Assembly: GCA_964404855.1 (NCBI GenBank) | Contig: CAYOLO010000001.1 | Location: 158,245 to 222,244 of the forward strand | DNA: 64,000 nucleotides | Origin: an uncultured Gammaproteobacteria bacterium | GTDB lineage: Bacteria > Patescibacteriota > Microgenomatia > CAYQLK01 | Direction of reading: 5' to 3' | Shown here: in pieces, positions 31,536 to 63,903 of the stretch | Position numbering within the stretch: position 1 is the stretch's first letter | Layout of the letters: each line of letters begins with the position of its first letter | The notes under the pieces: generated by a model | Told to the model about the DNA's origin: nothing | Database searches by the model: none | The model's input: only the letters and a program-made list of their open reading frames with translations | Translations under genes and position numbers: made by a program

Positions 31536-31567
31536 ATTGTTTTGAAATTAGTTTTTGGGCAATCAAA

Positions 31568-32484: not shown

Positions 32485-32486
32485 TT

Positions 32487-33269: not shown

Positions 33270-33271
33270 TT

Positions 33272-34171
33272 ATGGAATACATAAAATCAAAATTATCAGA
33301 CGATTTAGCGCGAAAAATTATCGGTAGTCAAGAAAAAGCAACCGAGTATTTGTTGCGATTAAACGAGATTAAGCCAATACATGCCTTAAAATTCAAAACC
33401 ATTAGCCGTGGACAAAATGCGGGTAAAAAAGTTTTAGTTTTAGAAACAAAGGAACTTTGGAAAGCCGTTGTTGATAGCTGGGATTATGAGGAAAGCAAAA
33501 AGATAATCAGAGATATTTTCAAACAGACCGAAAAATACAAAAGCGGAAAAGAAGCTGACAATGCAATGGATGTGCTTATCAAAGAATGGCAATCGTTGAA
33601 ATTGGGCGATATTGCATGGCCATTTTCGCAGGGCGCTTTTGACGAGTTTGTGCAACGAGTAAATTCTGAAAAAGAAAACGGATTTGTTAAAGATGAAAAA
33701 GTGAAAGTCGCTGCGGTAAAATATAGGCGAATAAAAGAAATAAACACTGTTAGGAATGATTTTATAGAAACATTGATTTTTGAAAAAAATAACAATATTT
33801 TGCCGACATTAAATCATAGACGAGGTGTTGATTTTTTTATCAATGGAGTTTCTTTTGATCAAAAAGTCGCAAAAAGTCCGACAAATGAATTTAAAAGGCA
33901 CTTTAAAGATGAGTGGCGAGAAGTGGCAATCAAAAAACCTGAACTTGTCGCAGAATATCTCTACAAATTCCAAGACGAAGGCAGATTTGGGGCAGACCCG
34001 AGATTATTGGTTGTTTATATTGATGAAGATGTTTCAATTGATAAAATAAGAGAGATAATAAACAAAACCGACTTAAATAATCCGGTTGAAATCAATTTCA
34101 CTTACAAACATAAAAATCTTGGTGAGAAAAATTATAAAGTGCCTTGTTTTGTAATCTTATTGCATAACTAA
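33272..34171 (+). CDS. Putative Type II restriction endonuclease (inferred from position between two MTases; candidate PD-(D/E)XK core)
   Basis: 299 aa, no MTase motifs. Candidate catalytic core ...RRGVDFFINGVSFDQKV (D...DQK). Assignment is contextual. Confidence 0.35.
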   Translation: MEYIKSKLSDDLARKIIGSQEKATEYLLRLNEIKPIHALKFKTISRGQNAGKKVLVLETKELWKAVVDSWDYEESKKIIRDIFKQTEKYKSGKEADNAMDVLIKEWQSLKLGDIAWPFSQGAFDEFVQRVNSEKENGFVKDEKVKVAAVKYRRIKEINTVRNDFIETLIFEKNNNILPTLNHRRGVDFFINGVSFDQKVAKSPTNEFKRHFKDEWREVAIKKPELVAEYLYKFQDEGRFGADPRLLVVYIDEDVSIDKIREIINKTDLNNPVEINFTYKHKNLGEKNYKVPCFVILLHN

Positions 34172-34175
34172 AATT

Positions 34176-35249
34176 ATGAATTATATCGGCAGTAAATTAT
34201 CATTATTGGAATTTTTAGAAGAATCAATTAATAAAGTAGTTGATAAAAACTGCGATACTTTTTGTGATTTATTTGCGGGAACTGGAATTGTTGGAAGTTA
34301 TTTTAAAAGAAAGGGTTATAAAATAATCGCTAATGATATTCAATATTACAGCTATGTTTTAAATAGGCACTATATAGGAAATCACAAAGAATTAAATTTT
34401 GCAAAACTAACAAAAGAAATCCCCAATTTAAAAAGTATTGATGTAAAAAATAGGAAAAATTTTGTTTGCAATTATTTATCAGATTTAAAAGGTGTAAAAG
34501 GATTTATTTATAAAAATTATTGTCTTGGAGGATCAAAAGATCAGACAGAACCACGACAATATTTTTCCGATGAAAACGGAATGCGTTGCGATGCTATCCG
34601 TCAAAAAATTGAAAACTGGAAAGAGCAAAGTTTAATTTCTAATGACGAATATTATTTTTTGATTACAAGTTTAGTTGAGTCAATTGATAAATACGCAAAT
34701 ACGGCTTCCGTATATGGTGCTTTTCTGAAAAAACTAAAAAAGACAGCTCAAAATAATTTAATTTTAAAACCCGCTGAATTGATAATAAACGACCAAGACC
34801 ACGAAGTTTTTAACGAAGATATAAATAAAGTAGCAGGAAAAATTAAAGGCGATATTTTGTATTTAGATCCACCATATAATCAAAGACAATACGCGACAAA
34901 TTATCATATGCTTGAAACTATCGCAAAATATGATAATCCTGAAATTCATGGAAAAACTGGTTTGCGCGAATATCAAAATCAAAAGTCCCTTTATTGTTCA
35001 AGGACACAAGTAAAAAAAGCATTTAAGGATTTGATTTTGAAAGCAAAAGCAAAATATATCTTTTTAAGCTATAACAACGAGGGTTTAATGACTTTAGGCG
35101 ATATTCAAGAAATAATGAGCTTACGGGGCAAATACGGTAATTTTACGAAAGAATATAATCGTTTTAAGGCGGATAAGTCAGAAAACAGAAACTATACTGC
35201 GAATAAAACTGTTGAGTATTTGCATTATGTAGTTTGTGAAAAAGCATAA
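34176..35249 (+). CDS. Dam-family (D12 class, alpha-type) N6-adenine DNA methyltransferase
   Basis: N-terminal NYIGSKLSLLEFL...FCDLFAGTGIVG (D12-class motif X/I) and DILYLDPPYNQRQYATNYH (motif IV DPPY). Confidence 0.8.
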   Translation: MNYIGSKLSLLEFLEESINKVVDKNCDTFCDLFAGTGIVGSYFKRKGYKIIANDIQYYSYVLNRHYIGNHKELNFAKLTKEIPNLKSIDVKNRKNFVCNYLSDLKGVKGFIYKNYCLGGSKDQTEPRQYFSDENGMRCDAIRQKIENWKEQSLISNDEYYFLITSLVESIDKYANTASVYGAFLKKLKKTAQNNLILKPAELIINDQDHEVFNEDINKVAGKIKGDILYLDPPYNQRQYATNYHMLETIAKYDNPEIHGKTGLREYQNQKSLYCSRTQVKKAFKDLILKAKAKYIFLSYNNEGLMTLGDIQEIMSLRGKYGNFTKEYNRFKADKSENRNYTANKTVEYLHYVVCEKA

Positions 35250-35266
35250 ACTATAAGCTATGAAAT

Positions 35267-37642
35267 ATGAAAATCCGAAAAATACAAACTATAAAAAATT
35301 ACAAATCCTTTTCGGATTTTTCTTGGGATAAATTTTGTAAAAATTGTTCCAATAACGAACAAACACTCTCTAATTACAATGTAATCTTTGGAGAAAATGG
35401 CTCTGGGAAGTCATCAATTTGTGATATTCTGAAAAATCTTTCGCAAATTCAAAATTTTCCAAACACTTCACCCGATCTCGCGGAAATAGAAATAAAAAAT
35501 GGAAGTAATCAAGTTTATAAATTTGAAAATGGAAGTTGGACACCAAACCAGTTAAATAAAAATTCCTTTTTATTTTTTGATGTCGATTTTATTAGTGCCA
35601 ATGTTCACACGCATGGCGAACGGTCAAATCAACAAGGCAGACATTCACAAAATTCAGGGAAAATGATTATTGATTTAGACGATAAGGCAAATCAGCTAAA
35701 AATCGTTGTAAAAGAAAAGAAAGAGGAATCGGATAATTTTGACAAAATTAATGCCGATATTTTAAACAAAAATTTTACCGATAAAGACAAAGAGCTTTCC
35801 GCTATTTACAAAGATAAAAGCGAACAAGAAATAAAGGATGAAATTTCAAAAAAACAGGAAGAAGCCAAAAAAATTGAGTTGGATTTATCAGCATTACAAA
35901 AGATAAACAAAAAATATTCGGAAATAAGTCAGTTACCCATTATCAATCAGCTTTCTTTCTCTTCTTCAATATCCACAAAAGAAATCTACTCGGAATTAGT
36001 TTTGAGACAGTTAAAGGAAAAAGCGCAAGATCAGGCGGACGAAAAAATAAAAGCACATTTTGAAAAACACAAAAGATTTATTGAGACAGCCAAGGATCAA
36101 ATACCGAAGGATTATCAAAAATCCGATTGTCCGTTGTGTATGCAACCCCTCGCTAATGCTTCAAAATTTATTGAATATTATAGGATTGCTTTTGATCAAA
36201 CATATGAAAACGAGAAAAGAAAATTTTTAACGGACATACAGAATTTAAAAAGTGAATTGGAAACCTTAAAATCCTCAATAAGTCTTTTACCGACAAAAGT
36301 GCTTGGAATTTTTAATTCTTTAGAAAAAATCAAAACTGATTTTGAAATTCAGGATATTTATAAACTCGAAGAAAAAACGGAATATACCGAAAAATTTAGT
36401 AAAATTTCTATCGCTCAAATAGACGAGCTTATTTTGAATTTAGAAGCGCTGAAAAGTATTGAGCGAAAAGAAATAAAACTTTCAGAAACTTATGACAAAA
36501 TAACAGACGGAGTGAAAGAAATAGCAAGTAAAATTAATGATTTTAATAAAATAATTGACGACAAAAACAAGGTCATTTCTGCGTTCAAGGGTAAATATTC
36601 TGATCAAAATAAAATTACTAACGAAATTCAGGAAAAAACTAAAAATCAAGCAGAGCTTCAAGAAACAACCCAGTTTTTAATAAATGACAAAATTCAGTCA
36701 ATCAAAAATCAAAACGCGGCGGTTCTAAAACAAAAAGCTTTGGCTGAAGTATTGAAAAAAGCTCAAGAAGATTTGAAAAATCATCTCGCCAATAGCATAC
36801 CAGAAAGCGTTATTATAAAAATGATTGATATTTTAGGAAAGTTTAATTTAAGTTTTACGCTTGAACATATCAAACCAGCACCAAACACGAAGGACTATTC
36901 TTTTTCATTTAAAATTAAAGATCAAAAAGGGCATGAGAGAGATTTTAAAGATGGGCTTTCAGAGGGCGAGCGACAGTTGATTTCCTTGGCTTTTTTCTTT
37001 TCTATCAATGAAAGTTTGTTGGACAAATCAAATATAGTTTTGATTTTTGATGACCCAATAACCAGTTTAGATTCGCCAAATTTGAAAATACTTGCCGACT
37101 TGATTCACGAAAAAACACAGGAATTTTCGCAAGTAATTATTTTTACTCATCACCCTTTATTTTATAAATATGTGGCTAAATGCGAAAATCCTAATCCGTG
37201 CAAATTTGGCGTTTTGAAAAATCATGACGCTTTTGGTGGTAGTTTTATTTTCTTTGATCCCGGATTTGATTTAACGGCAGAAATGCAAAAGTGCAATGAG
37301 GAAATAAAACAGAACGCACAAAGCGGAAATTTAAAACCCGAAGAAATTGCCTTGAAATACGGACAACTTTTGCGTCTTGCCGTTGAAAAATTTATCAAGC
37401 ACGAATTATTGATGTGGAATAAAGAAAGTAATTTTGAAAAAGAAATAATAGCAAATTTATCAAAAAGCAAAAGTAAAATTCAAAAACTAGATGACAGTGA
37501 TTTGGAAATAATGACAAACATTCATAAATACTGCAATCATTCAAACCTTTTACATGCGGATAAAGAAAATCCGTCGGCACTTTCGGAACTGATGACACAT
37601 ATTGATAAATTTGTTATTATTCAAGATAAGGTAAATCTGTAA
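35267..37642 (+). CDS. RloC-like protein: Rad50/SMC-type split ABC ATPase with coiled-coil CxxC zinc hook and C-terminal candidate anticodon-nuclease domain
   Basis: 791 aa. Walker A GENGSGKSSICDIL near the N-terminus. ~450 aa of coiled coil with central hook DYQKSDCPLCMQPL. Signature/Q-like SEGERQLISLAFFF, Walker B/D-loop VLIFDDPITSLD, H-loop IIFTHH. C-terminal ~150 aa contains R-x3-E (RLAVE) followed by His-containing segment HKYCNHSNLLH, reminiscent of the PrrC/RloC nuclease triad. Confidence 0.5.
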   Translation: MKIRKIQTIKNYKSFSDFSWDKFCKNCSNNEQTLSNYNVIFGENGSGKSSICDILKNLSQIQNFPNTSPDLAEIEIKNGSNQVYKFENGSWTPNQLNKNSFLFFDVDFISANVHTHGERSNQQGRHSQNSGKMIIDLDDKANQLKIVVKEKKEESDNFDKINADILNKNFTDKDKELSAIYKDKSEQEIKDEISKKQEEAKKIELDLSALQKINKKYSEISQLPIINQLSFSSSISTKEIYSELVLRQLKEKAQDQADEKIKAHFEKHKRFIETAKDQIPKDYQKSDCPLCMQPLANASKFIEYYRIAFDQTYENEKRKFLTDIQNLKSELETLKSSISLLPTKVLGIFNSLEKIKTDFEIQDIYKLEEKTEYTEKFSKISIAQIDELILNLEALKSIERKEIKLSETYDKITDGVKEIASKINDFNKIIDDKNKVISAFKGKYSDQNKITNEIQEKTKNQAELQETTQFLINDKIQSIKNQNAAVLKQKALAEVLKKAQEDLKNHLANSIPESVIIKMIDILGKFNLSFTLEHIKPAPNTKDYSFSFKIKDQKGHERDFKDGLSEGERQLISLAFFFSINESLLDKSNIVLIFDDPITSLDSPNLKILADLIHEKTQEFSQVIIFTHHPLFYKYVAKCENPNPCKFGVLKNHDAFGGSFIFFDPGFDLTAEMQKCNEEIKQNAQSGNLKPEEIALKYGQLLRLAVEKFIKHELLMWNKESNFEKEIIANLSKSKSKIQKLDDSDLEIMTNIHKYCNHSNLLHADKENPSALSELMTHIDKFVIIQDKVNL

Positions 37643-37985
37643 ATTTTTGGTGGCGCGCCAGTTTTCAACTGGCACAGCCTCAAATTCCGCCGAAAAAAAG
37701 AATCGTCCCCGCGAGGGCGTGGCGGAAGGGGGGTTTGGGGGGAATTCCGCCACGCCCGAGCGAATACAAAAAGCGGACAGCTCCGCCGTCCTGCTCGTTA
37801 AGAGCAGAACCCCGCAAAAAAGTTTTCTTTTCCTTTTAGAAGAAAAAATCCGGCGCGCGCAAATCAAAAAATGTGAAGAAAACTTTTTTGCGGGGTGGCG
37901 AGGTTTCCGAGCGACGGCGGGGCTGGCTTCCTTATTGGGGGTTTTGCTCAAAAAATGTTCGAACTTCGTCCAAAAAACACCGCCA
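37643..37985. repeat. IR-2b: GC-rich palindrome-dense repeat (inverted partner of 31778–32120), ending in CCGCCA
   Basis: See IR-2a. Contains the same 18-bp and 13-bp perfect internal palindromes in mirrored order. Ends ...CCAAAAAACACCGCCA|GGG at 37985. Confidence 0.8.
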
Positions 37986-38096
37986 GGGTTTTTGTTCGGT
38001 GTACAATTAATTTGTTATGTATTTTGGGCAAAAAGTAGTTGGATTTAATCAATTTTCATTTAATAAATTTTTAATAGAGGGGCGGTGAGTAGGTAA

Positions 38097-43601: not shown

Positions 43602-44028
43602 TTTCATATTTGGAGTAATAAAGGTCGATAGTTGTTTTTATAGTTACTCGCCAAAATTTTTCCAAAAACTGCCTCCGACATTTTTGTCATCAATTTGGCT
43701 ACGTCCTGCGTTAAGAATGAATTAAATATTCATTCTCTCGTCGAGACATGAAAACCTGAAACTAAAAGGCAAGAAAAAGCCCGCTTGGAAACCAAGCGGG
43801 CTAGGGGTTGACGGCTCGAAGCCGAGAAAGAGGTGTTTGTGGCCTGAAGTCCAAGCTTAACGGATAGGTCCGTTGGCTAGAGCGAGAGCTTGGTTAAAAG
43901 CGACTGAAACACAGTTTCTCTGGTTTGAGCCAGGATGTGGAGACGAATTTCTTCGACATGGGGAGGTTGAGGTGCAAGCGAGCGCGCGTGAGCGCTAACC
44001 CTCCCTCAGGCGGACGGTCGAGGACGTC

Positions 44029-44988
44029 TTAGATCTGCAGGGCAAAGGCGGCCGGTTTGGGCTGCCAAAGCTGATGCATCGAACTCGAAGGGGAGCCGCG
44101 GGCGATGTTGCGGCCGTGTTCGGTGTTCGTGTTGCGGAGGAGTTCGGATTCGCCGGGGGTCGCTGCTGCGTTGTTGCGATGAACGGTGAAGACTGTGCCG
44201 GCGACGATCGGTGCGATGAGCGGATACGCGGATCCTGCTCCAAAGCGCTTGAGCGACGAAATCATGGCCGTTCCGGCTGAGGCGATGGCCCTTCGGAAAT
44301 ACGAGTTCGAGGTTCTGACGGCGCCGACGAATGTGATGAAGGCGGCGTGTAGTCGACCGAAGATCGCGCTGGTGACAGGATGCGTCTTGCGCGGGCTCGT
44401 CGTGGTGTTTTCGGCGGACAGCGTGTCGATGGCCTTGGCCACATGCGATGCACGTTTAAGGCCGAATCGTTTGCTTATCCCCGTGTCGTCGTCAAGTGAT
44501 GCCGAGTTGAAGAATGTGGTGCCGGCAAAACTTCGAGAACCCCTCGAGGTATGACGATGACCCATTTCTTGCCGTCGGATGTACCGAGGACTGGCGTTTT
44601 CAACGAGCGGGCCCATGTTGGCTACTCGCAGAAGGACCACGAAAGCGACCGTGACGGCGACGAATGCCCAGAGCTCCACAGGTCGGGACTGAGCGGTGGT
44701 GTTGCCGATGGTCGAGGCGACGGAGTCGGTGATGCCGAAGAAGACGTTCGCGACGTCGGTGACCGCACTGGTTGTGCTGCCGCGTATGTCGGGAAGGTTC
44801 GTATTCGGAGTCGAGAGGTCGTTGGTCGAAGGCGAGATTGCCTGCGAATCGACGGGCTCAGACAGGCTGGCTGCCGAAGCGCTCGACCATTCAGTCGCGA
44901 GCGTTACGAAGACGGCGAAGGCAGCGATGATGGCGATGAGCCACGCGATGCGTTTTCCGCCGACCGTTTGGGTAATTTCCCTGCTCAA
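44029..44988 (-). CDS. Hypothetical membrane protein encoded in an anomalously GC-rich (~60%) island
   Basis: 319 aa, longest ORF of an island (≈43780–45010) where all six frames are open. Two predicted TM helices (IAWLIAIIAAFAVFVTLA; LWAFVAVTVAFVVLL). No family recognised. Coding status uncertain. Confidence 0.3.
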   Translation of the reverse strand: MSREITQTVGGKRIAWLIAIIAAFAVFVTLATEWSSASAASLSEPVDSQAISPSTNDLSTPNTNLPDIRGSTTSAVTDVANVFFGITDSVASTIGNTTAQSRPVELWAFVAVTVAFVVLLRVANMGPLVENASPRYIRRQEMGHRHTSRGSRSFAGTTFFNSASLDDDTGISKRFGLKRASHVAKAIDTLSAENTTTSPRKTHPVTSAIFGRLHAAFITFVGAVRTSNSYFRRAIASAGTAMISSLKRFGAGSAYPLIAPIVAGTVFTVHRNNAAATPGESELLRNTNTEHGRNIARGSPSSSMHQLWQPKPAAFALQI

Positions 44989-45325
44989 TAGACTGGTCCT
45001 CCTTTTGTGAGGGAGTCTAGTTTTTAGACTTAAACCCTAATGTTTCAAGGGTCCAAGTCGTGTTGGTTGAAAATGAAAACTGGTCGGAACAAGTATCAGG
45101 TCTTTGTGGCTACCCTAAGATAGAGTAGTCCGAAATTCCTCCTTTTAATTGGAAAGGTACGACACTTTTCACTGGCTGTGAAATTGATGTCTAGCTAAAT
45201 TGTACACCCCGAATGCAAGTTTTTGGACTACTGTAATAAGATTGGTTGAAAAAGAAAGGATGTAAATACTCAAAATGGCTTCGTTTTTGGGTATTTTATG
45301 GTAATAGTGTGATATATTCCTAGTC

Positions 45326-47161
45326 ATGATTGACCAAGTTGATCAAGTAAAAGATAGGTCGGATATTGCTGAAATTATTGGCGGTTATGTACAGCTAAAA
45401 AGTGCAGGACGAAACATGAAAGGATTATGTCCGTTTCATGGCGAAAAAACACCGTCGTTTATGGTCAACCCCGAAAGAGGTACTTGGAAGTGTTTTGGTT
45501 GTGGGGAAGGTGGGGATGTTTTTACCTTTTTGGAAAAAATTGAAGGTCTAGATTTTGCGGAGGCTTTGGAAAAACTGGCTAAAAGAGCAGGGATTGTTTT
45601 AGAAAAAAAATTCAACGGACAAAAAGACAAACAGAAAGAGACATTGCTGGCTATTAATGAAGCGGCTAAGGATTTTTATCACAAAATTTTGCTTACACAT
45701 CCTGTTGCTCAAAAGTCTCGTGAATATCTTAAAGATAGAGGGTTAAAGGTCGACGATATTAAGACTTTTGAACTAGGTTATGCGCCTAATTCTTGGGATT
45801 CTTTATTCAATATGCTGGTCAAAAAAGGATTTAGTCAAGCAGATATTGCCATGTCGGGACTGGTAATAAGTAAAGACAGAGGTGGATTTTATGACAGGTT
45901 TAGAGGAAGAGTGATGTTTCCGATAAGAGATATTGCGGAAAGATTGGTTGGGTTTTCAGGGCGAACAATGATGAATGATCCAAAGGAAGCAAAGTATGTG
46001 AATACCCCAGAGACACCGATGTTTAGTAAGAGGAATTTGTTATACGGAATACATTTGTCTCGGCAGTTCGTGACCAAAGAAAATAGTGTGATTTTGGTCG
46101 AAGGGCAATTTGATATGGTTTCTTCGTTCCTGGCCGGAACAAAAAATGTCGTGGCTACAGGTGGTACGGCACTAACTGATGGGCAGTTGAGGGTGATAAA
46201 ACGATTAACTGAGAATGTTTTGATTTGTTTTGATTCTGATTCGGCTGGTGACGCTGCTTCTAGACGAGGTATTGAGATGGCAGAAAATGCAGGACTGGTT
46301 GTTAAGGTGGTAACTCTGGTTGGAGTTAAAGACCCTGATGAAATGGTAAGAACTAATTTGGCTGGATGGAAGGAAGCGATTAAAAATGCTCAAGGAGTGT
46401 ATGACTATTACATCGACTGGGCGTTTCGTAGTTATGACAGGACAACTAGCGAAGGTAAAAGAAAAATCGGTCAGGAATTGATGCCTGTTTTGACTGGGAT
46501 TAGTGATGAAATTGTTAAAAATCACTATGTGAAGATTGTGGCCGACAGGCTTGATACAACCGAAGATGTAATTATGCGAAGTATGAGTCAGGTTAAATCT
46601 AAGTCATTAGACTCTTTAACAGATTTTTCTAAGGTTGATGATTTGGCTAATAAAAAAATTGATGATGATATTGTTAATCACAAAGCAGGGCTCGAGGAAT
46701 ATTTTTTGGCACATTTATTACAGATTGGTGATTATTCCTGTGAGCTATCGATATGGCCAGAGGTAGGAGATATTAATGACACGGAGTTAAAACAAATATA
46801 TCAGGCATTAATTGAATATGAGCCATTTAGAAGTGCGGGGAAGTTTAAAAAAGTTGAAGACAAAAATGAATATTTTAATCAGTCGAGGTTTATTAGCAAC
46901 TTACCAGAAGAATTGGTTATTAGGGCGGACAAATTGTGTTTACTGGACTTATCAGAGGTGATTGATGAGCCTCATGCGTTTGGTAATTCGCTTGAAAAAT
47001 CAGCAATTAAGCTTTGTACGCTTGCATTAAAAACAAATTTGGATACAATAACACGACAGTTAAAAGAACTGGATGCTTCGGGTGGGGTGAAAGACCTAGC
47101 CATTCAAAGCCGGAAGTTTGCCAGATTATCTAAAAAACTAAGGTCAATGCAGAAAAGTTAA
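45326..47161 (+). CDS. dnaG: DNA primase
   Basis: 611 aa. CHC2 zinc finger CPFHGEKTPSFMVNPERGTWKCFGCGEGGDVFTFL and TOPRIM (ILVEGQFDMVS...DSDSAGDAA). Confidence 0.93.
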   Translation: MIDQVDQVKDRSDIAEIIGGYVQLKSAGRNMKGLCPFHGEKTPSFMVNPERGTWKCFGCGEGGDVFTFLEKIEGLDFAEALEKLAKRAGIVLEKKFNGQKDKQKETLLAINEAAKDFYHKILLTHPVAQKSREYLKDRGLKVDDIKTFELGYAPNSWDSLFNMLVKKGFSQADIAMSGLVISKDRGGFYDRFRGRVMFPIRDIAERLVGFSGRTMMNDPKEAKYVNTPETPMFSKRNLLYGIHLSRQFVTKENSVILVEGQFDMVSSFLAGTKNVVATGGTALTDGQLRVIKRLTENVLICFDSDSAGDAASRRGIEMAENAGLVVKVVTLVGVKDPDEMVRTNLAGWKEAIKNAQGVYDYYIDWAFRSYDRTTSEGKRKIGQELMPVLTGISDEIVKNHYVKIVADRLDTTEDVIMRSMSQVKSKSLDSLTDFSKVDDLANKKIDDDIVNHKAGLEEYFLAHLLQIGDYSCELSIWPEVGDINDTELKQIYQALIEYEPFRSAGKFKKVEDKNEYFNQSRFISNLPEELVIRADKLCLLDLSEVIDEPHAFGNSLEKSAIKLCTLALKTNLDTITRQLKELDASGGVKDLAIQSRKFARLSKKLRSMQKS

Positions 47162-50705: not shown

Positions 50706-51458
50706 ATGAAGTACTTAATTGCGGTTGCGTTGGTTTTAATATTAGGCTTGGGAGGGTTTTTTCTTTGGAAATCTTTAAGCTCTGGTTCAGATATTAATAA
50801 AACGAGCGAAAAAAGTTCTACTTCTGACACAAAAGAAGTGAAGTTTTTGAATCCTAAAAAAAGTGCGCATTATGAGTCAAATACTCCTGCACATGGCGAA
50901 ATACTAGCCGGAACACCAATAGAGGTTGTTATTAATTTTAATTTTGATTTGGCTAACCTGTCCGAAATTAAAATAATTAAAGATAACGCGGAATATGGAG
51001 AGGGTGAAACATCAATCGATAACAACAAACTTACTATGCGTAGAGCAGTGAAGAATGATTTAGCTGATGGGGTTTATACAGTGGAGTATAAGGCTTGCTG
51101 GCCAGATGGAAGTTGTCATGATGGTAGTTTTCAGTTTGCTATTGATAAGGATCTTTCTGGTCTTTTTGAAGATCAAACTACCAAGAATGAGGTCGTGGTT
51201 AAGTTGTCATCAATTCGGTTTATGCCTCAAAATTTGAAAATAAGTGCTGGTTCTACTGTAAAGTGGATAAATGATGAGATAGTTGAGCATTATGTGAATA
51301 CTGATTCGCATCCAGCACATACTTACTTTTTGTCTCAAAATTCTAAGCTATTAAAAAATGGTGACGAGTTCGAACAGGTCTTTAGTGAGCCCGGCATATA
51401 TCCATATCATTGTTCGGCTCATGCCCAGACAATGAAAGGGTCGATATTAGTTATTTAG
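50706..51458 (+). CDS. Copper-binding fusion protein: CopC-like N-terminal domain + C-terminal cupredoxin (plastocyanin/azurin-like type-1 Cu site)
   Basis: N-terminal TM/signal, then HYESNTPAHGEILAGTPIEVVINFNFDL (CopC-like beta-sandwich starting with His). C-terminus ...EHYVNTDSHPAHTY...YPYHCSAHAQTMKGSILV gives the H...C..H..M blue-copper ligand set. Confidence 0.65.
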   Translation: MKYLIAVALVLILGLGGFFLWKSLSSGSDINKTSEKSSTSDTKEVKFLNPKKSAHYESNTPAHGEILAGTPIEVVINFNFDLANLSEIKIIKDNAEYGEGETSIDNNKLTMRRAVKNDLADGVYTVEYKACWPDGSCHDGSFQFAIDKDLSGLFEDQTTKNEVVVKLSSIRFMPQNLKISAGSTVKWINDEIVEHYVNTDSHPAHTYFLSQNSKLLKNGDEFEQVFSEPGIYPYHCSAHAQTMKGSILVI

Positions 51459-55368: not shown

Positions 55369-55761
55369 GTGAGTGTGTTGAATCCTAAACAATTTTTGAT
55401 GCTCGGAGGAGTTGTGCTTGTTTTATTAGGTGTGGCTGGAATGTTTGTTTTGGGCCCATCAGTAGAGTCAAGTATGCTTGGCGAGAAATTTTTTCTGACT
55501 GAGGGTGAGAATATTGCTCACTTGGTTTTGGGAGCTGTTGCTCTTGGGGCGTATTTTACAATCAAGAGTGCAAAACTACTTAGATTATTGACTGCTGTTG
55601 TTGGGGTAGTTGCAGTAATTGCGGTAATTTGGGGGCTAGTTAGTATGGGTAAACCTAATCCAAATATTGGTGTAGCTAATCTTGAAAATCCTGCTGACAA
55701 TATCCTGCATGCATTGGTTGCAGTCTGGGCATTTGTAACAGTGTTTAAAAAATCTGCATAA
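55369..55761 (+). CDS. Four-TM membrane protein, hypothetical
   Basis: 130 aa, hydrophobic helices throughout. Confidence 0.4.
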   Translation: MSVLNPKQFLMLGGVVLVLLGVAGMFVLGPSVESSMLGEKFFLTEGENIAHLVLGAVALGAYFTIKSAKLLRLLTAVVGVVAVIAVIWGLVSMGKPNPNIGVANLENPADNILHALVAVWAFVTVFKKSA

Positions 55762-55850: not shown

Positions 55851-56912
55851 ATGAAGAAAATTTTGGTTGTGTTTGCGGTTTTTTTGTTTGTGATTGGAAT
55901 ACTGTTATCTAAATACCAAAAAAACCAGATTACTGATTGGGGGAATACAGAGGAATTTTTGATTAAAAATCACAGCGAATGCGAATCAACAAAACAGAGG
56001 CGTGACTATATTAATTGTATGGTTGCAAAAAGTAAGGATTTTGTGGGGGTGCGGGGAGTTGGCGAGTTGGTAAGTGCCGCACAAAGGATAAGTAATGGCA
56101 AGAAGGTTGATCTTGTCGGCAGTATTAATTGTCACGATATGATGCATTCATTGGGAAAAGCTGCGGGGTTGTACATGAAATCATTTGACGAGGCGATAAC
56201 AGAATGTTTGCCATTTTGTGGAGGTGGCTGTTTCCATGGAGTTTTGGAGGGGAAATATTCGTCGAACCCCGACATGAAGAAGTTTGTGTCGGAAGCTTGT
56301 TTGTTTACAAAAGATATTAAAAAATCAGAAGCGCATTGTTATCATGGGCTTGGTCATGCCGTTGCGGTACAGCTAGGCGACATCGATGATGCTTTTAAGT
56401 ATTGTGATTATGTAATTGAGGAGGGAAGACTTTGGTGTGGGTCGGGGGCGTTTATGGAATTGTATTCTGGAGATGGGTTTGATTTAGGAAAAATACCAGA
56501 GAATGTTCCAGAGTGGTGTAGAGCTTTCGAAGGTGTTTATGCTGAGGTTTGTTGGTTGTCTGCGGGATATTTTCGAACTGGAAATGGTTATTTAAAATCA
56601 ATTGGGATTAATACAGCCTCGCCTGAAAATGAGGCTATTTATAATTGTAATAGTGCACCAACAGATGATCTTAAATCTGGTTGTATATATACATTTGGAG
56701 ACAATATTTACAATATTGCAAAAGAAGATCATAAAAAAATAAATGAGATATGTATGCGATTTGATAGTGGCCTAGTTGGCTGGTGTTTAAAAGGAGCGGC
56801 GCACAGTGCAAAAAGAAATCATCCGAGCGAAAATCTACATGTAGAGTTGTGTGAAACAAATGATGACCTGCGAATACAAAATGAATGTAAGAGCGAATTT
56901 TTGACTAATTAA
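55851..56912 (+). CDS. Cys/His-rich membrane-anchored extracytoplasmic protein, paralog A of a tandem triplet (uncharacterised family)
   Basis: 353 aa. N-terminal TM anchor. Conserved blocks shared with the two downstream paralogs: INCHDMMHSLGKAAG, CGGGCFHGVLEGK, CYHGLGHAVA, GAFMELYSG, EAIYNCNSAP. More than 14 Cys. Confidence 0.6.
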   Translation: MKKILVVFAVFLFVIGILLSKYQKNQITDWGNTEEFLIKNHSECESTKQRRDYINCMVAKSKDFVGVRGVGELVSAAQRISNGKKVDLVGSINCHDMMHSLGKAAGLYMKSFDEAITECLPFCGGGCFHGVLEGKYSSNPDMKKFVSEACLFTKDIKKSEAHCYHGLGHAVAVQLGDIDDAFKYCDYVIEEGRLWCGSGAFMELYSGDGFDLGKIPENVPEWCRAFEGVYAEVCWLSAGYFRTGNGYLKSIGINTASPENEAIYNCNSAPTDDLKSGCIYTFGDNIYNIAKEDHKKINEICMRFDSGLVGWCLKGAAHSAKRNHPSENLHVELCETNDDLRIQNECKSEFLTN

Positions 56913-56915
56913 ATA

Positions 56916-58064
56916 GTGAGACATAAATTGTTTATTTTATCTTTGGTGTTTTTTTGTTTTGGGTTATTGCTAGCGCAATTTGGAATAGTTTTTGATCGTG
57001 CACAAGTCAATCGGGATGATGCAATTACTTCTGTGTCTGAGTCGCAAAATAAATGTTTAAAAACTGGTGAGAGATACAAATATTTGTCTTGTATGACGGA
57101 ATACTTGCGGCCTATTGTTAGAAAATATGGAGTAAAGACGGTAATTGCAGATGTAAAAAAATCGCTTTTATTTAACGATGGTAAGGTTTGGTTTGGTGAG
57201 GGTGGGGACGAGAGGCGAACATGCCATGAGCTGATGCATGCAATAGGCAGGAGTGCGGGGAAATATTCAAATGATGTTAAAAAAGAAATATTAGAATGCG
57301 ATCCAGTTTGTGGAGTAGGTTGTTATCACGGAATTATGGAAAGCATGTTGGATAGAACAGGATCGAATTTTATTTCTGTGGTGAAAGGGTTTTGTAGTGG
57401 GTCGTTTGGAAATAATAACCCAGAAAGCAAAGCTTGTTTTCATGGCTTGGGACATTCAATAGCTAATTATAGATTTAATGAGATCGAGGCTTTGAAGGTT
57501 TGCGATATGGTTGACCCATCTGGTCAGTCTGATTGTGCTAAGGGAGTGTTTATGGAGCTTTACCATGTGACTGGTTTACATAGTCCATTAGAAATTCCTT
57601 TAGATAAAGAAGCTTGGTGTAGTAGTCAAAGTAAAAAATATCAGGATGTTTGTTGGCAACTTGCTGGAGGGTTTTATGGTGCGGTAAGAAAAAATGATGT
57701 GTTGGCGAGTAAGGGTATTGTAATAGATAGCTACGAAGATGAGGCAATTTATTACTGTTCTATTGCTCCGGAAGTAGGGTTAAAGGCTCAGTGTTATGAG
57801 CTGATGGGGCTTAATTTGTATAACCTTATAAAAAATCATTTTGATAGTACAGGTCATAATTGGGATGAATTGTCGAGAGTTTGTCATCAAGCGATTGGGT
57901 TTGTTGATGATTGTATTCGCGGTTCGATTACAGGTATGTTTGAGTCCGATCCGGCTGGTAAGGAAGGGGAAAAGATTTGTGGATTACTAGATATATCTAA
58001 GGAGTACGATATTTGTGTGACTAGTGTGGTTGAAAGGAGGCAGAGGTTTGAAAAAAATATTTAA
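56916..58064 (+). CDS. Cys/His-rich membrane-anchored protein, paralog B
   Basis: 382 aa. RTCHELMHAIGRSAG, CGVGCYHGIMESM, CFHGLGHSIA, GVFMELYHV, EAIYYCSIAP. Confidence 0.6.
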   Translation: MRHKLFILSLVFFCFGLLLAQFGIVFDRAQVNRDDAITSVSESQNKCLKTGERYKYLSCMTEYLRPIVRKYGVKTVIADVKKSLLFNDGKVWFGEGGDERRTCHELMHAIGRSAGKYSNDVKKEILECDPVCGVGCYHGIMESMLDRTGSNFISVVKGFCSGSFGNNNPESKACFHGLGHSIANYRFNEIEALKVCDMVDPSGQSDCAKGVFMELYHVTGLHSPLEIPLDKEAWCSSQSKKYQDVCWQLAGGFYGAVRKNDVLASKGIVIDSYEDEAIYYCSIAPEVGLKAQCYELMGLNLYNLIKNHFDSTGHNWDELSRVCHQAIGFVDDCIRGSITGMFESDPAGKEGEKICGLLDISKEYDICVTSVVERRQRFEKNI

Positions 58065-58077
58065 TTTAAAGAAAAAT

Positions 58078-59142
58078 ATGCGATTTTTTTTCATATTTGG
58101 ATTTGTGATTATTTTTGTGGTGGGAGTATTGGTTTCGAATATTTTTCTCGCTGATCAGAAGATTTCCGCATATGACGGCTTATCTCAATCTCATACGAAA
58201 TGTTTTGAATTTAGACCGAGATCAAAATATTTGGAATGTATGAGAGTTACTTTGGAAAAAACCATAAGACAAAATTCAGCAGTCGATATGGTTTTGGCTG
58301 GAGGCAAGATAGACAAAGTAAGAAATGTTAGTTTTGACAGGGAAATAAATTGTCATGTCATGATGCATAGTGTCGGAAGGGCATTATCTGAATATAAAAA
58401 AGATTTTGGTGAAGTTGTCTCTTCTTGCCAGCCTTTGTGTGGTGCAGGATGTTATCACGGTATTATGGAGGGGAAATATAAGGTGCAGCAAGATATTGCT
58501 GACACGATGAATACAGCATGTGAGGGGTTGTTTCAAAAGGGAGATTTATTGGCAAATAATTGTTTCCATGGTTTGGGTCATGCGATTGCAATTAAAAACT
58601 GGGATTTGGATAAAAGTTTAAAGGATTGTGAGATTGTGAGTGTTAACGGTCGAAAAGAATGCGGGGCGGGGGTTTTTATGGAATTATTTTCTAGATCTGA
58701 AGCTCAATTGATGCCACTGCCTGCCGATGTGCCAGGTTGGTGTAATGGTTTTGAAAAAATTTATAGTGAGTCTTGTTGGATATTTGCGGCAAATATTAGA
58801 GGTGAAAAAAACATGTTTTTAGAGTCATTGGGGATAGACACTTCAATACCAGAAAATGAGCCGATTTATAATTGTTCTAAATCACCGGAGGATTTTAAAA
58901 AAGAGTGTTTTAAGATGTTGGGTTACACATTGTATGACGCAAAAAATAAAGTTGGCAAAGAAATAGTTAAAGTTTGTGAGAGTTTGGGTGGAGTAAGTAG
59001 TGAAATGTGTATTTCTGGTGTGGTTGAGAGAGATCTTGAGGAGATAAAATTTCAAGCTGGAATTGGAGCGTGTGATTATATTTATGGAAACAAATTAAGA
59101 GAATTTTGCGTTGATAAGTATAAAAATCCTGTTATTAATTAA
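58078..59142 (+). CDS. Cys/His-rich membrane-anchored protein, paralog C
   Basis: Start reassigned to MRFFFIFGFVIIF (58078). The track start 58024 overlaps paralog B. INCHVMMHSVGRALS, CGAGCYHGIMEGK, CFHGLGHAIA, GVFMELFSR, EPIYNCSKSP. Confidence 0.6.
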   Translation: MRFFFIFGFVIIFVVGVLVSNIFLADQKISAYDGLSQSHTKCFEFRPRSKYLECMRVTLEKTIRQNSAVDMVLAGGKIDKVRNVSFDREINCHVMMHSVGRALSEYKKDFGEVVSSCQPLCGAGCYHGIMEGKYKVQQDIADTMNTACEGLFQKGDLLANNCFHGLGHAIAIKNWDLDKSLKDCEIVSVNGRKECGAGVFMELFSRSEAQLMPLPADVPGWCNGFEKIYSESCWIFAANIRGEKNMFLESLGIDTSIPENEPIYNCSKSPEDFKKECFKMLGYTLYDAKNKVGKEIVKVCESLGGVSSEMCISGVVERDLEEIKFQAGIGACDYIYGNKLREFCVDKYKNPVIN

Positions 59143-59193
59143 AAAAACTCCCCTTAGTAAAAAGGGGAGTTTTTGGTTTTTTTTAAAAAAGAG

Positions 59194-59859
59194 TTACTTC
59201 TTTTTAAGTCCTAATGCTACAGCGGTAAATGAAGCAATTAATGCAATTCCTGCCATAAGCTGACTGACGTTGTCAGAACTTGAACTCTGAGGTAGTGCAA
59301 CAGTGCTGGTGGTTCCAGTCAAATCGTTAACGATTTTGGTTTCTGAATATGGGCCAACAGCATGTTCTTCCTCTTTGTGTTCGCCGCTAGAGCCTTTTTT
59401 TGCTTCTTCGGCTTTTTTTAGCTCCTCTGGGCTTTGGTCCCAAGCAACAATAACTCCATTGGAGTATGTTTGATAGGCTTTCCACTGAACAGATGTTTCT
59501 TCAGCAGGGGACTTGGCGCTAAAAGAAAATTCGTCGCGTTGTCCAACTGGAATTGAGCCGCCTGACCAAATGATTTCGGAAACTTTTTCTGTGTCACCAA
59601 CCTTTACGGTTTTGGTCGAAACCGTCCAGCCTGGTTTAACATTTGGCATAACTGACACCATCTTTTCGGGGATTACTATTCTTAAACCTGTAGTTGGGAT
59701 GTCTTTTTCATTAGGTACACCAGCTGTGAAGGTTTGGTACGCAGCCACTCCAACCTGTGCAGGTTTAACTGTGACGTGCGCTAGTGTGTATGGCGAAAGA
59801 GCGCTTGTAATTGCAGCCATGGTCAAAACCAAGGCTGAGGTGGTAATAGTTTTTTTCAT
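59194..59859 (-). CDS. YcnI-like (DUF1775) copper-binding protein with C-terminal TM anchor
   Basis: Signal peptide ...YTLA|HVTVKP. Mature N-terminal His (His-brace position), then QTFTAGVPNEKDIPTTGLRIVIP and KPGWTV blocks typical of DUF1775/YcnI. C-terminal hydrophobic anchor. Confidence 0.7.
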   Translation of the reverse strand: MKKTITTSALVLTMAAITSALSPYTLAHVTVKPAQVGVAAYQTFTAGVPNEKDIPTTGLRIVIPEKMVSVMPNVKPGWTVSTKTVKVGDTEKVSEIIWSGGSIPVGQRDEFSFSAKSPAEETSVQWKAYQTYSNGVIVAWDQSPEELKKAEEAKKGSSGEHKEEEHAVGPYSETKIVNDLTGTTSTVALPQSSSSDNVSQLMAGIALIASFTAVALGLKKK

Positions 59860-59961: not shown

Positions 59962-60783
59962 TTAACTTATTGGTGGGGCTCGAGATGCGAAGATAAAGAG
60001 AAATTCAATTTTTGTTTGACTGGGAAGTAGATTATTAAAAGTAGAGTAAATGTTTTGGCTGATTATTGTCGCGTCGGAATTTGTTGTTTCTGAAGAGGCA
60101 ATAAAACAACAAGGATGGTCTGCGTGGTTGCCTATCATTAGATGGTCTGAGCTAAAGTGAACAGAGGCGTAGATTAGGGGAGTAAGTAAGCTAAATCCTA
60201 AGATAAGTGCAATTATTTTCTGAGGTTTTTTTGGGAGTTTTTTGTTCCTGCCTCGTCGGTCGAGAAACAAGATGATGGCAAATACCACCACAGCTATAAA
60301 TGCAGTTAAGTAATGAAAAAAATGTATATCTGAAGGGTTATTGTTGGTTGACTGATTTGAGTTTTGTTCTCGAGTGATTCGTAAGGTGTGGTTAATTTCG
60401 AAGGATTGGAAAGACTCGGGAGTTTTGGGTGTGCCTGTAATTTTAATAGTGTAAACATTTTTTTCTGGGAAGGTAAATTGAAATGCTGGGGCGTTAATAT
60501 CATTGGTTAAGGAAGTGGTAAATAAATCTTCGGTGTGTAGTTCAATACCATTTTTGAGAATAGTAATTTTACAAATACAATCTGCTGGATTGAATTTGTT
60601 CTCTTTGTCTTTGAATTCGAAATAAAAATTGGCTGGACTTCCAACTGGTGGATCATCGTCTGGAGCCACATGAAGTGTGGTTCCAATCGAGCCACTAGTA
60701 AGCAGGACGTGAGCAGATACTGGTTGAGTAAGTGAAAAAAAAGTGATTGAGCTGATGACTAGAGTTAGTATTGCTTTAATCAT
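59962..60783 (-). CDS. Secreted/anchored protein with mature N-terminal His and Cys/His-rich C-terminal tail, hypothetical metal-binding
   Basis: Signal peptide ...QPVSA|HVLLTS. Beta-rich domain, TM anchor (FIAVVVFAIILFL), tail HFSSDHLMIGNHADHPCCF. Start overlaps the stop of the upstream ferric-reductase-like gene (ATGA). Confidence 0.45.
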   Translation of the reverse strand: MIKAILTLVISSITFFSLTQPVSAHVLLTSGSIGTTLHVAPDDDPPVGSPANFYFEFKDKENKFNPADCICKITILKNGIELHTEDLFTTSLTNDINAPAFQFTFPEKNVYTIKITGTPKTPESFQSFEINHTLRITREQNSNQSTNNNPSDIHFFHYLTAFIAVVVFAIILFLDRRGRNKKLPKKPQKIIALILGFSLLTPLIYASVHFSSDHLMIGNHADHPCCFIASSETTNSDATIISQNIYSTFNNLLPSQTKIEFLFIFASRAPPIS

Positions 60784-62345
60784 TTGACCTCGATGGTGTA
60801 ATTGCTAACTAATATAATGCCAGAGTGATTGAATTGTCCAAATATTCGATATGTTCCTGGCTTTACTGGGCCATAAATACCAATTGGTAAAAACTCTACA
60901 ATCGGACCGCCGTTTTGATCGGGGGAGGGAGCTGTTAAATTTGCGGGATGAACATGATAATATTCATATGATTTTTGGTTAATCATTACTAAATGACCAA
61001 AAGAACCAAGATAAGGTTTGAGATTGGTGATAGGTTGACCTGTTTTAGAGGATTTTATTTCAAACTTGAGTGCAATTTTGCCGAGTGATAGTTCTTTTGC
61101 GGTAAGTGGAGATGAGCTAGTTACATTGATTAAATAATCCCCAAATGTTTTAGCTAAGTTATTGTCTATTGGTTGAGAGGCTATTTCGTTGTTTGGATTA
61201 CTGCCGACTGGAAGAGTAAATGCAAATTGCTGTTCGATTGCTCCAAGTGGTTGAAAGTCGATATAAACACGGTAGGTGTTCTCTTTAGGAAATTGAGTAG
61301 TAATTGTAAAAGTGTTCCCGTTTTGTTCTGGGTGGATATGGTCAAAGTAGTTTAAGGTAGAGTCAACAATAATAAGGTGGGAAATTTTTTCGTTAATAAT
61401 TTGAAAAACAGAGGCTGGTTCGCCGTTACTAGCATCGTTTACTGTAAAGGTTAAGTTTTTGGTAAGAGGGTCTTTGGTGTTAGTTGTATCAAGTTTGACT
61501 GAATAACGCCTATTTCTATCACCATTAAGTCCTGGAATTTTTGAGTTGGTAGTTATGGTTGATGGTGAACCGTTTAGAGCTTGTTCGGCGAGTTTTTGGT
61601 GTTCGGCGTGGATGCCTAATGATGGTCCAATTCCAGCTGGGGCGAAGGAAAAATAGCTAGTTATACTAACAAGGGCAACAATGATTGTAAAAGTGATGCC
61701 AAACTTGGGTTGAGTAAAGTGTGTAAATTTTTGAGTTAAATATTTGTCTAGTCGATAAGCTTCCAGAAGTAAGAGAATAGTAACAAGAGCAATTGTGATT
61801 TGGGGAATAAATTCGTAGAGGTTTGAATAGTGAGTTCCAAGCATAAGAGCATGAATCAAAATAGCAATTCCTGCTAAATAAACCGTTCTGTGAAGCATTT
61901 TCCATCTCTTGTTACCGAGCTTGTCTATTATCTTGTCAAATGAAGTTAGTGTCATAATCAAAAGAACAATTAAACCAAAAAAACTGAGGCCTAGGGCGAT
62001 TAAATATTTTGAACTTAAAAATCCCAAACCTTGAAATCCTTGCAGTTGAAGAAAAAACGCTATATTTGCGTGAAGAAAAGCAAACCAAAAAGCCGACACT
62101 CCGAGTGCGCGTCTGGCCAGAATGTAAGTTGGTCTAAATGAAAGATTGGGAAAGACACTAAAAAGAGGACTGGCAATAATGGCTAAATAAAGATAAAGAA
62201 TAGCAAGTAGGGCGTAAATCTGTGTCAACCTGATAGTCGTGAGGTTGTCTGAATAGTTAAGGTTCGCAAAGATGTAGACTAATCCTGATAGAGCAACTGA
62301 ACTGACTAGGACAAAATATCGAATTTTGGTTATTACTAGACGCAT
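60780..62345 (-). CDS. Ferric-reductase-like (MsrQ/YedZ-type) transmembrane domain protein with large C-terminal extracytoplasmic domain
   Basis: 521 aa. Six TM helices with conserved His pairs in helices (WFAFLHANIAFFLQ; LHRTVYLAGIAILIHAL) as in heme-b-binding ferric reductase domains. ~270-aa C-terminal beta-rich domain. Confidence 0.45.
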   Translation of the reverse strand: MRLVITKIRYFVLVSSVALSGLVYIFANLNYSDNLTTIRLTQIYALLAILYLYLAIIASPLFSVFPNLSFRPTYILARRALGVSAFWFAFLHANIAFFLQLQGFQGLGFLSSKYLIALGLSFFGLIVLLIMTLTSFDKIIDKLGNKRWKMLHRTVYLAGIAILIHALMLGTHYSNLYEFIPQITIALVTILLLLEAYRLDKYLTQKFTHFTQPKFGITFTIIVALVSITSYFSFAPAGIGPSLGIHAEHQKLAEQALNGSPSTITTNSKIPGLNGDRNRRYSVKLDTTNTKDPLTKNLTFTVNDASNGEPASVFQIINEKISHLIIVDSTLNYFDHIHPEQNGNTFTITTQFPKENTYRVYIDFQPLGAIEQQFAFTLPVGSNPNNEIASQPIDNNLAKTFGDYLINVTSSSPLTAKELSLGKIALKFEIKSSKTGQPITNLKPYLGSFGHLVMINQKSYEYYHVHPANLTAPSPDQNGGPIVEFLPIGIYGPVKPGTYRIFGQFNHSGIILVSNYTIEVK

Positions 62346-63255: not shown

Positions 63256-63903
63256 TTGAGCTTTAGTAAAATCGTAACAATGAAGGTTTTTTTGTATTTG
63301 TATATTGGAATTGTTGTAACAATACTAGCGGTTACTGTTTTTCTTGCAGCTCGACTACCTGAAGATGATTTGACACATATTCATGCTAATTTTGGTGTTT
63401 TTGTTGATGCTCAAAAACTAGATTTTTCTGGTGAAAAATATATGCATACTAAACCTTGTTTTTCTGACTATCACACGCAAAAGCATTTTGGAGACAGGGT
63501 TCATTTGCATGACGGTATCGGTGATGTTGCGCATATACATGACTCTGGAGTGGTTTGGGGGGATTTGATGCTATATTTGGATATAAAAACTACGATTAAT
63601 GGAATTGAGTTTGGTGAAAAATTATACCCTCTCGATAGGCAGAACAAGCTAAGTTATTACATTAATGGGAATAGTGTAAACAATTTTGAATTAACAGAAA
63701 TTAATAATAACGATTCATTAATTATTGTTTTGGGTAACGAAAATTTAGACAATCTTACAGTTGGTAAAGAAAAGTTTAATCAGTTAAGTGCACAACTGTC
63801 TAATAGAAGTGAAGAGTTAAATGGTTTATCGCTGGCTGAGGCGTGTGGGGGAGGGTACAAAATGAGTTTTTGGGAGAAGGTTGCTAAGGTTTGGGGATTT
63901 TAG
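63256..63903 (+). CDS. N-terminally anchored His-rich extracytoplasmic protein, hypothetical metal-binding
   Basis: 215 aa. TM anchor, then THIHANFG...YHTQKHFGDRVHLHDGIGDVAHIHDSG, with 10 His in 60 residues. Confidence 0.45.
   Translation: MSFSKIVTMKVFLYLYIGIVVTILAVTVFLAARLPEDDLTHIHANFGVFVDAQKLDFSGEKYMHTKPCFSDYHTQKHFGDRVHLHDGIGDVAHIHDSGVVWGDLMLYLDIKTTINGIEFGEKLYPLDRQNKLSYYINGNSVNNFELTEINNNDSLIIVLGNENLDNLTVGKEKFNQLSAQLSNRSEELNGLSLAEACGGGYKMSFWEKVAKVWGF

Follow-up and report, generated by a model that had tools for sequence, protein, structure and literature searches.

The stretch of DNA analysed here, referred to as the window, comprises 64,000 nucleotides (nt) of contig CAYOLO010000001.1 (assembly GCA_964404855.1, positions 158,245 to 222,244 of the forward strand) and carries a run of three + strand genes for related, Cys- and His-rich membrane-anchored proteins, which we call paralogs A, B and C or, together, the triplet. 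Paralog A (55851-56912; 353 amino acids, aa) is an open reading frame (ORF) for an N-terminal anchor followed by an ectodomain of approximately nine helical-hairpin units, predicted to be stapled by disulfides; paralog B (56916-58064; 382 aa) initiates at a GTG codon 3 nt past the stop codon of A; and paralog C (58078-59142) has 354 aa when read from its ATG. All three match the hidden Markov model of the family (E 2e-130, 1.6e-136 and 1e-113, respectively), and over the entire window the family profile matches these three only. A first-pass annotation, made from the letters alone, had proposed three tandem paralogs of 353, 382 and 355 aa; the ORFs lie where it placed them and its first two sizes stand, while the third is one residue too long. 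An alternative GTG start of paralog C at 58024 would yield 372 aa; the ATG is the start used in the gene calls on the near-identical contig L005.

The three genes look like a single operon, since only 3 nt separate A from B and 13 nt separate B from C, and a bidirectional, intrinsic-terminator-like hairpin (59143-59174; 13-bp stem with T runs on both sides) follows directly after paralog C, where it closes both the triplet and a convergent operon described below. Matches to sigma-70-like promoters around the triplet were in no excess over shuffled sequence. The similarity among the paralogs is far above chance, with pairwise BLASTP identities of 30% for A/B (E 4e-43), 37% for A/C (7e-68) and 33% for B/C (7e-50), and 18 Cys columns are invariant in their alignment. 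Of five ordered motifs that had been ascribed to all three proteins, the second to fifth are exact in A, B and C, while the first is exact in A and B and ends in Ser instead of Gly in C. Each N-terminus consists of one to three basic residues and then a hydrophobic helix of about 20 residues (residues 2-24 in the AlphaFold2 (AF2) model of paralog A), as expected of the anchor that had been suggested. The A-B-C order is identical in relatives, whose orthologs are 55-86% identical, and we therefore consider the triplication to be old, as the modest identity had already led the first-pass annotation to propose.

The family is not a recognized one. Neither Pfam nor NCBIfam gave a match at E<=1 for paralogs A, B or C, Pfam gave nothing for distant family members or for a Streptomyces homolog, and a profile of 25 members returned only noise from the sequences of the PDB (best E 0.029). 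The AF2 model of paralog A is all-alpha with 20 helices (predicted local distance difference test score 87.8, predicted template modelling score 0.77), and a fold search of the PDB found no close match to it, the best being importins, proteasome PC repeats and designed repeats. A proteasome/cyclosome (PC) repeat toroid of the Rpn1/Rpn2 type was considered and rejected, there being no Pfam match and the best Foldseek overlaps reaching a TM score of only 0.37-0.39 at E>0.1. The only NCBI name borne by any of 76 actinomycete homologs retrieved is 'hypothetical protein', and in the literature on cupredoxins in Patescibacteria and other bacteria of the candidate phyla radiation (CPR) we found nothing describing a helical-repeat family of this kind.

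The repeated and ordered C-x-HG motifs that first drew attention to these proteins are present, but their source proved to be an internal repeat of about 38 aa: they are the product of approximately nine helical hairpins, which are 36-40 aa long and contain one C-x10-13-C pair apiece. When the units were cut from the family alignment by their Cys pairs (approximately 36-43 residues) and compared by HHalign, units R5-R9 matched one another with probabilities of 90-96%, R3 and R4 matched R5 with 58-85%, and R1 matched R9 with 75%. In the AF2 model of paralog A the 20 helices alternate in short/long pairs, and a unit consists of a short helix with a Cys at its end, a loop, and a longer helix whose first two turns contain the second Cys.

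Conservation and Cys covariation were counted over 266 diverse family domains sharing below 60% identity. C94 and C123 are both present in 186 of these and both absent in 80, with neither ever occurring alone (phi 1.0), and C119 and C127 occur together in 132 and are jointly missing from 133, the first standing alone once and the second never (phi 0.99). For C266/C278 the corresponding figures are 152 and 92, with five domains holding the first only and 17 the second only (phi 0.83); for C44/C56 they are 151 and 85, with the second alone in 30 and the first alone in none (phi 0.79). The remaining five pairs are 93-100% conserved. Because the Cys are gained and lost in pairs, they are best understood as disulfide staples, of which the proteins of the window would have nine, and the same pattern also fits a location outside the cytoplasm. 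We hold it to be very likely that the triplet proteins are extracytoplasmic, membrane-anchored proteins of alpha/alpha-repeat architecture.

Within this scaffold lies a cluster of five His, encoded in paralog A at 56130-56360 on the + strand (residues 94-170), with the layout C94-H95-x3-H99, C127-x-H129-G-x2-E133 and C163-x-H165-G-x-G-H169. The conserved fraction is 0.99 for H95 and H99, 0.98 for H129 and 1.0 for H165 and H169; the counterparts are H104, H108, H138, H176 and H180 in paralog B and H93, H97, H127, H164 and H168 in paralog C, where they make up five of the six His in the protein. Several Gly near the cluster are conserved as well (G102, G126, G130, G166, G168 and G199), and most other positions fall below 40%. 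Paired Cys and near-invariant His are both in line with the 'metal or disulfide-rich extracytoplasmic domain' put forward in the first-pass annotation. The long helices of units 2, 3 and 4 carry the i/i+4 pairs H95/H99, H129/E133 and H165/H169, and each pair starts within two residues of a clamped Cys (C94-H95, C127-x-H129, C163-x-H165). Pairing of C94 with C123 would tie together the N-termini of the helices bearing H95/H99 and H129 and, given the parallel stacking of the long helices in the solenoid, this pairing suggests a rigid, His-lined patch. Judged from the sequence, it is somewhat more probable than otherwise that the patch is a metal or cofactor site.

Several known types of metal site were compared with this pattern. 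A c-type cytochrome was rejected, as CXXCH is absent from A, B and C and the nearest string, C-x3-C-x-H, has both of its Cys in just 50% of the family. Hemerythrin-like di-iron bundles are characterized by five His together with an invariant bridging Glu and Asp (H...HxxxE...HxxxH...HxxxxD). The succession HxxxH / HxxxE / HxxxH is similar, but E133 is conserved in 68% and E203 in 59% of the domains and there was no Pfam or PDB match, and this candidate was likewise dismissed. Three UniRef clusters from actinomycetes (P0191, P0209 and P0232) carry the name 'Metalloprotease', which we ascribe to an HExxH string peculiar to that subfamily, and the name raises the question of whether the proteins could be zincin-type metalloproteases. 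The string overlaps the second conserved His (HEIGH in P0191 and HEVGH in the Streptomyces homolog; HELMH in paralog B occurs by chance). However, Glu follows H99 in just 15% of the 266 domains, His is outside the four commonest residues four positions on, paralogs A and C are without HExxH, and no peptidase family was matched in Pfam or NCBIfam, so that this already disfavoured reading is scarcely credible.

The family is large. An exhaustive HMMER search with the family profile, counting representatives of clusters at 50% identity, returned 7,458 at E<=1e-3 and 2,068 at E<=1e-30, against which the 27 relatives given by a word-index homolog search were misleadingly few. A survey of one genome per species produced 78 loci: 26 in Patescibacteria/CPR lineages (median GC content 0.44), 19 in metagenome-assembled genomes (MAGs) labelled 'uncultured Gammaproteobacteria' (0.39), 28 in Actinomycetota, including Streptacidiphilus, Kitasatospora, Streptomyces, Peterkaempfera and Rubrobacteraceae (0.72), one each in Aenigmatarchaeota and Acidobacteriota (Sulfotelmatobacter), and three unclassified. 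We distrust the gammaproteobacterial label of the 19 MAGs because of their low GC content and their synteny with Microgenomates loci: L012-L017, L019, L026, L033 and further loci of this group have 34-47% GC and CPR-style family arrays, and several share neighbours with loci of Daviesbacteria, Levyibacteriota and Gottesmanbacteria. The gene content of the window and its GC content of 38.5% would suit a small CPR-type genome.

Copy number differs sharply between these groups, with tandem arrays of up to eight copies in CPR-type loci and always a single copy in Actinomycetota. The nearest relative MAG combines the triplet (L012) with another array, of eight genes (L015), and so has at least 11 paralogs; many long proteins consist of two to eleven copies of the family domain. 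The largest are giant predicted proteins, P0028 (3580 aa) and P0029-P0032 (1726-2143 aa), with 5-11 family-profile matches; the C-terminal region of P0028 reads as glycoside-hydrolase-family-3-like, and the five could be genuine polyproteins or, in recoded genomes, the result of gene calling that ran through stop codons. Tandem amplification on this scale in genomes that are very small (3 + 8 copies in the nearest relative, arrays of 5-8 elsewhere), together with fusions of up to 11 family matches per protein, would suit surface binding or adhesion repeat proteins like Hcp of Helicobacter. The arrays of the family would then vary a groove that binds proteins or glycans for contact with host or partner cells, and its His cluster would be structural (e.g. 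holding Zn), with no redox role. Alpha-solenoids are moreover classic binding scaffolds, as the importins, PC repeats and designed repeats among the best fold matches illustrate. Five invariant His amid a drifting remainder are, however, rare in binding scaffolds, the family is single-copy and next to a Rieske gene in free-living Actinomycetota, and the repeated fusion to a cupredoxin would be left unexplained; we regard this reading as quite unlikely.

A domain of about 90 residues with the motif WPAS-x2-HPxH...[FY]HDH is fused to 33 of 173 family representatives and occurs at 30 of the 78 genome loci, as well as at L001, as a fusion or as a neighbour; CPR arrays typically have one such domain per 5-8 paralogs. 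Its profile matches amicyanin, plastocyanin, the NirK-fused cupredoxin domain and multicopper oxidases in the PDB, with E-values down to 9e-13. In the HMMER alignment to amicyanin an Asp takes the place of the copper-ligand Cys. Conservation is likewise missing at the His and Met ligands further downstream, and H-P-x-H and H-(D)-H are invariant. In Streptomycetaceae, the gene immediately downstream of the family gene encodes a DoxX-Rieske fusion in 12 loci. As read from its sequence, the DoxX-Rieske protein of L040 has five membrane helices and a twin-arginine-like motif before the last, which, if right, would put the Rieske domain outside the cell; the DoxX-anchored Rieske domain is probably exported. 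P0156 (499 aa) is the sole representative in which the family domain is joined to a truncated globin (Bac_globin, E 2e-14), and one representative is fused to an alpha/beta-hydrolase. P0218 (442 aa, Streptomyces) was not accepted as a family-Rieske fusion, as it joins the first ~245 family residues to the DoxX-Rieske neighbour, apparently because of a deletion between the two genes. Another uncharacterised protein with Cys-rich repeats, about 920 aa long, stands beside family arrays in 14 Microgenomates-like loci (L082:29-2863, L042:9490-12270 and 12 others); its repeats read C-x3-C-x3-C-(D/E)-P-x-N-(Y/A)-x2-C-x2-(F/Y)-A, and it has no Pfam match.

We tentatively propose that the triplet proteins are extracytoplasmic metalloproteins, probably copper-binding, that act with redox or copper partner domains. 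Expressed from one operon, each product would be a cell-surface protein tethered by a single N-terminal membrane helix, with an ectodomain forming a solenoid of about nine helix-loop-helix units in which a disulfide, one of nine, clamps the end of the first helix to the first turns of the second. H95/H99, H129/E133 and H165/H169 would align on one face to give a pre-organised metal centre; we infer this convergence in three dimensions, as well as copper as the most likely metal, any transfer of electrons or copper, and catalysis. Across the family the centre would work with a dedicated extracytoplasmic partner, namely the cupredoxin with HPxH...HDH and a lost blue-copper Cys in CPR-type bacteria and Rubrobacteraceae, and the DoxX-anchored, probably exported Rieske domain in Streptomycetaceae. 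The helical protein would then carry the metal in a redox or copper module at the surface, probably as its catalytic or metal-relay part, and in the paralog arrays the rest of the surface would diversify around an unchanged metal site.

In the window itself, the triplet is accompanied by genes with a copper theme. Convergent with it lies a YcnI-type DUF1775 protein with a C-terminal anchor (59194-59859, - strand; Pfam PF07987, E 3e-24). This family is one that binds Cu(II), and YcnI of B. subtilis is reported to bind copper (PMC8424229). The product of the next gene (59962-60783, - strand), of 273 aa, has a signal peptide, a mature N-terminus with an invariant His (A24|H25), a beta-sandwich ectodomain and then two transmembrane helices, and this N-terminal His beta-sandwich resembles CrdA/PmoD. 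Its likeness to 'N-terminal His' beta-sandwich proteins that stand beside the L001 and L088 arrays and are fused in P0095 is weak: BLAST gives E 0.011, and with a profile built from the 273-aa family they were not reached at E<=0.01. A ferric-reductase-type transmembrane protein follows (60780-62345, - strand; Pfam PF01794, E 2.7e-8), whose unannotated C-terminal fusion of about 300 aa matches nothing in Pfam and includes the strings HIHP and HVHP. As the ferric-reductase-type gene overlaps the start of the 273-aa gene and shares the orientation of the YcnI gene, the three look like one operon. On the other side, 4.4 kb upstream of the triplet, is a CopC-cupredoxin fusion (50706-51458, + strand; Pfam CopC 6.9e-11, Copper-bind 5.2e-11), whose cupredoxin half keeps the Cys-x2-His-x3-Met loop (HCSAHAQTM) and is homologous to the Cys-less partner domain, as indicated by phmmer matches to partner ORFs in 18 loci and by alignment. 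A gene 89 nt upstream of the triplet encodes a small DUF4383 membrane protein (55369-55761, + strand; Pfam PF14325, E 2e-7) and may be the first gene of the triplet's unit; the adjacency is kept only in close relatives. A 215-aa membrane-anchored protein (63256-63903, + strand) contains the His-rich stretch HLHDGIGDVAHIHDSG, has no Pfam match and is likewise conserved only in close relatives.

The copper-gene cluster that had been noted beside the triplet is thus real, comprising the YcnI-type, CopC-cupredoxin and CrdA/PmoD-like genes, but as a family-wide link it did not hold: YcnI, 273-aa, ferric-reductase, PKD and DUF4383 neighbours were rejected as family-wide partners, since they occur only beside close relatives (L005-L014). 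Accordingly, they represent lineage context rather than a signature of the family, and this is one of several points that weigh against a redox or copper metalloprotein. The Cys-less cupredoxin is not encoded in this window and is absent within ~8 kb of the family in 48 of the 78 loci, and having lost the Cys, the second His and the Met it is unlikely to be a classical electron carrier. The acidic residues near the His, E133 and E203, are variable at the frequencies given above, and proteins that bind or adhere, rather than enzymes, also tend to be amplified to more than ten divergent paralogs.

Two further readings draw on the same neighbours and partners. In the first, the proteins would be a non-catalytic copper (or thiol-disulfide) relay or buffer like COA7 in an oxidising compartment, binding a metal or heme through His and serving copper chaperones or cupredoxins by handing off metal or exchanging disulfides, with no turnover of a substrate. 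COA7 consists of five disulfide-bridged alpha/alpha repeats, binds heme via His/Met and acts on the copper chaperones SCO1/SCO2 (PMC8892353), a comparable architecture is inferred for the triplet, the window contains the copper-binding neighbours YcnI, CopC and the CrdA/PmoD-like protein, and the partner cupredoxin is without a normal electron-transfer site. However, five invariant His are not needed by a relay, and Rieske and globin partners suggest redox chemistry rather than copper hand-off; such a relay or buffer seems unlikely to us. In the second, the proteins would be extracytoplasmic b-type heme proteins whose invariant His pairs axially ligate one or two hemes, serving as surface electron carriers fed by Rieske, cupredoxin or ferric-reductase-type partners. 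In helical cytochromes b the bis-His hemes lie amid a similar pattern, with conserved Gly beside the His (HG, HGxGHG) of adjacent parallel helices, the recurrent partners are all redox or ligand-binding metallo-domains, and a ferric-reductase-type (heme b) membrane protein is nearby in the window. To our knowledge, however, CPR-type bacteria are generally expected to lack heme synthesis, there is neither a CXXCH nor a match to a heme-protein family in Pfam, NCBIfam or PDB sequences, and five is an odd number of His for bis-His sites. COA7 does provide a precedent for heme on such a repeat (PMC8892353); on balance we consider a heme protein improbable.

A more specific form of the copper metalloprotein proposal, which we deem decidedly improbable, is that a multinuclear copper centre of hybrid kind forms where the helical protein and the Cys-less cupredoxin meet. 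Three outward-facing His (the second His of HPxH and both of H-D-H) would come from the cupredoxin, and the solenoid would contribute its five. In multicopper oxidases the equivalent cupredoxin His positions ligate the trinuclear cluster, and the total of eight His would equal the count of a trinuclear copper cluster. If true, the hybrid site would define a new class of surface copper oxidoreductase, abundant in CPR bacteria thought to be without such chemistry, in which the diversified helical subunits of an array would all share a single cupredoxin subunit.

Despite its thousands of members, the family is without a name, a domain model or a solved structure, and by our estimate from 11 copies it could fill approximately 1% of the genes in ultra-small CPR-type genomes. 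Near-invariant five-His clusters on disulfide-rigidified helices, together with fusion to a cupredoxin without blue-copper ligands, point to unexplored metallobiochemistry of the cell surface. Should the five-His site be catalytic, it would add redox capability to organisms usually described as purely fermentative. The single-copy homologs beside a DoxX-Rieske gene in culturable Streptacidiphilus, Kitasatospora and some Streptomyces make the function directly testable.

Elsewhere in the window, positions 29949-38050 resemble an island that is mobile or can be inverted. They include a serine-recombinase-like ORF (30000-31535, - strand) whose end is overlapped by a tRNA (29949-30035) and which is flanked by a perfect inverted repeat of 134 nt (30033-30166 / 31650-31783); downstream of the recombinase, methyltransferase-like and ATPase-like ORFs, read from their translations, occupy 32487-37642 at a low GC content of 0.29-0.35, and a 318-nt inverted repeat of 99% identity (31772-32089 / 37674-37991) flanks this block. 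A tmRNA gene is found at 23031-23483 (Rfam, 105 bits). The cluster at 3684-20362, again read from translations, includes a surface protein of 1165 aa (3684-7181) with an M23-peptidase-like motif at its end, a VirB4-like ATPase (7244-9106) and small pilin-like membrane proteins (17746-20362). The GC content peaks at 0.49 over 44001-46000, compared to a window mean of ~0.385, and the peak covers a 319-aa ORF (44029-44988, - strand) of unusual composition that is overlapped by + strand ORFs.

Compared with known systems, the triplet shares its cellular location, membrane tethering, copper theme and neighbourhood with the YcnI, CopC and CrdA/PmoD proteins. These are, however, beta-sandwiches that bind copper through a mature N-terminal His, whereas the triplet is all-alpha with internal His, and there is no homology. 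CnrX and NccX have an N-terminal anchor and an all-helical periplasmic domain, and bind metal by an HxxxH pair plus Glu and His of neighbouring helices. The single anchor, the all-helical domain and the HxxxH pair are features of the triplet too. CnrX, on the other hand, is a helical hairpin dimer of approximately 150 aa without Cys staples or repeats that signals to an adjacently encoded anti-sigma factor; no adjacent anti-sigma-type partner occurs at the triplet, and there is no sequence or fold match.

The trinuclear cluster of multicopper oxidases and the type-2 site of NirK offer a different parallel, in that the partner domain is a related cupredoxin whose HPxH and H-D-H resemble HPxHLHGH and HCH. 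The His on either side of the Cys in those enzymes extend to a copper site that a second domain helps to form. The triplet proteins as such were rejected as multicopper oxidases or cupredoxin enzymes, which would call for a cupredoxin fold with the motifs HxH, HxH, HxxHxH and HCHxxxHxxxxM, being all-alpha, with only the separate partner domain a cupredoxin that keeps just HPxH and H-D-H. The partner domain, in contrast to its relatives, is without the Cys, the second type-1 His and the Met, shows no complete oxidase or nitrite-reductase signature and is not encoded in the window, and the putative second half of the site would be an alpha-helical repeat instead of a cupredoxin.

The closest architectural parallel is with HcpB, HcpC and COA7, which are helix-turn-helix solenoids with repeats of 30-40 residues in an oxidising compartment and with an intra-repeat disulfide, predicted likewise in the triplet; Hcp proteins, as the triplet, also form a paralog family. 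HcpB and HcpC contain 4-7 repeat units. The triplet has nine units where COA7 has five, with a Cys spacing of 10-13 as opposed to 8-11, and COA7, which binds its cofactor through His, acts within a copper relay (PMC8892353). In contrast to Sel1-like proteins, the triplet has no PF08238 or other Pfam match at E<=1, and its paralog A model did not show the structural similarity to HcpB, HcpC or COA7 that membership would entail. The five-His cluster, the N-terminal membrane anchor and the cupredoxin or Rieske partner are described neither for Hcp and COA7 nor for any other known family we found. Hence, while the triplet falls outside Hcp and COA7 by sequence and by fold, in architecture it is close to these disulfide-bridged alpha/alpha-repeat proteins.

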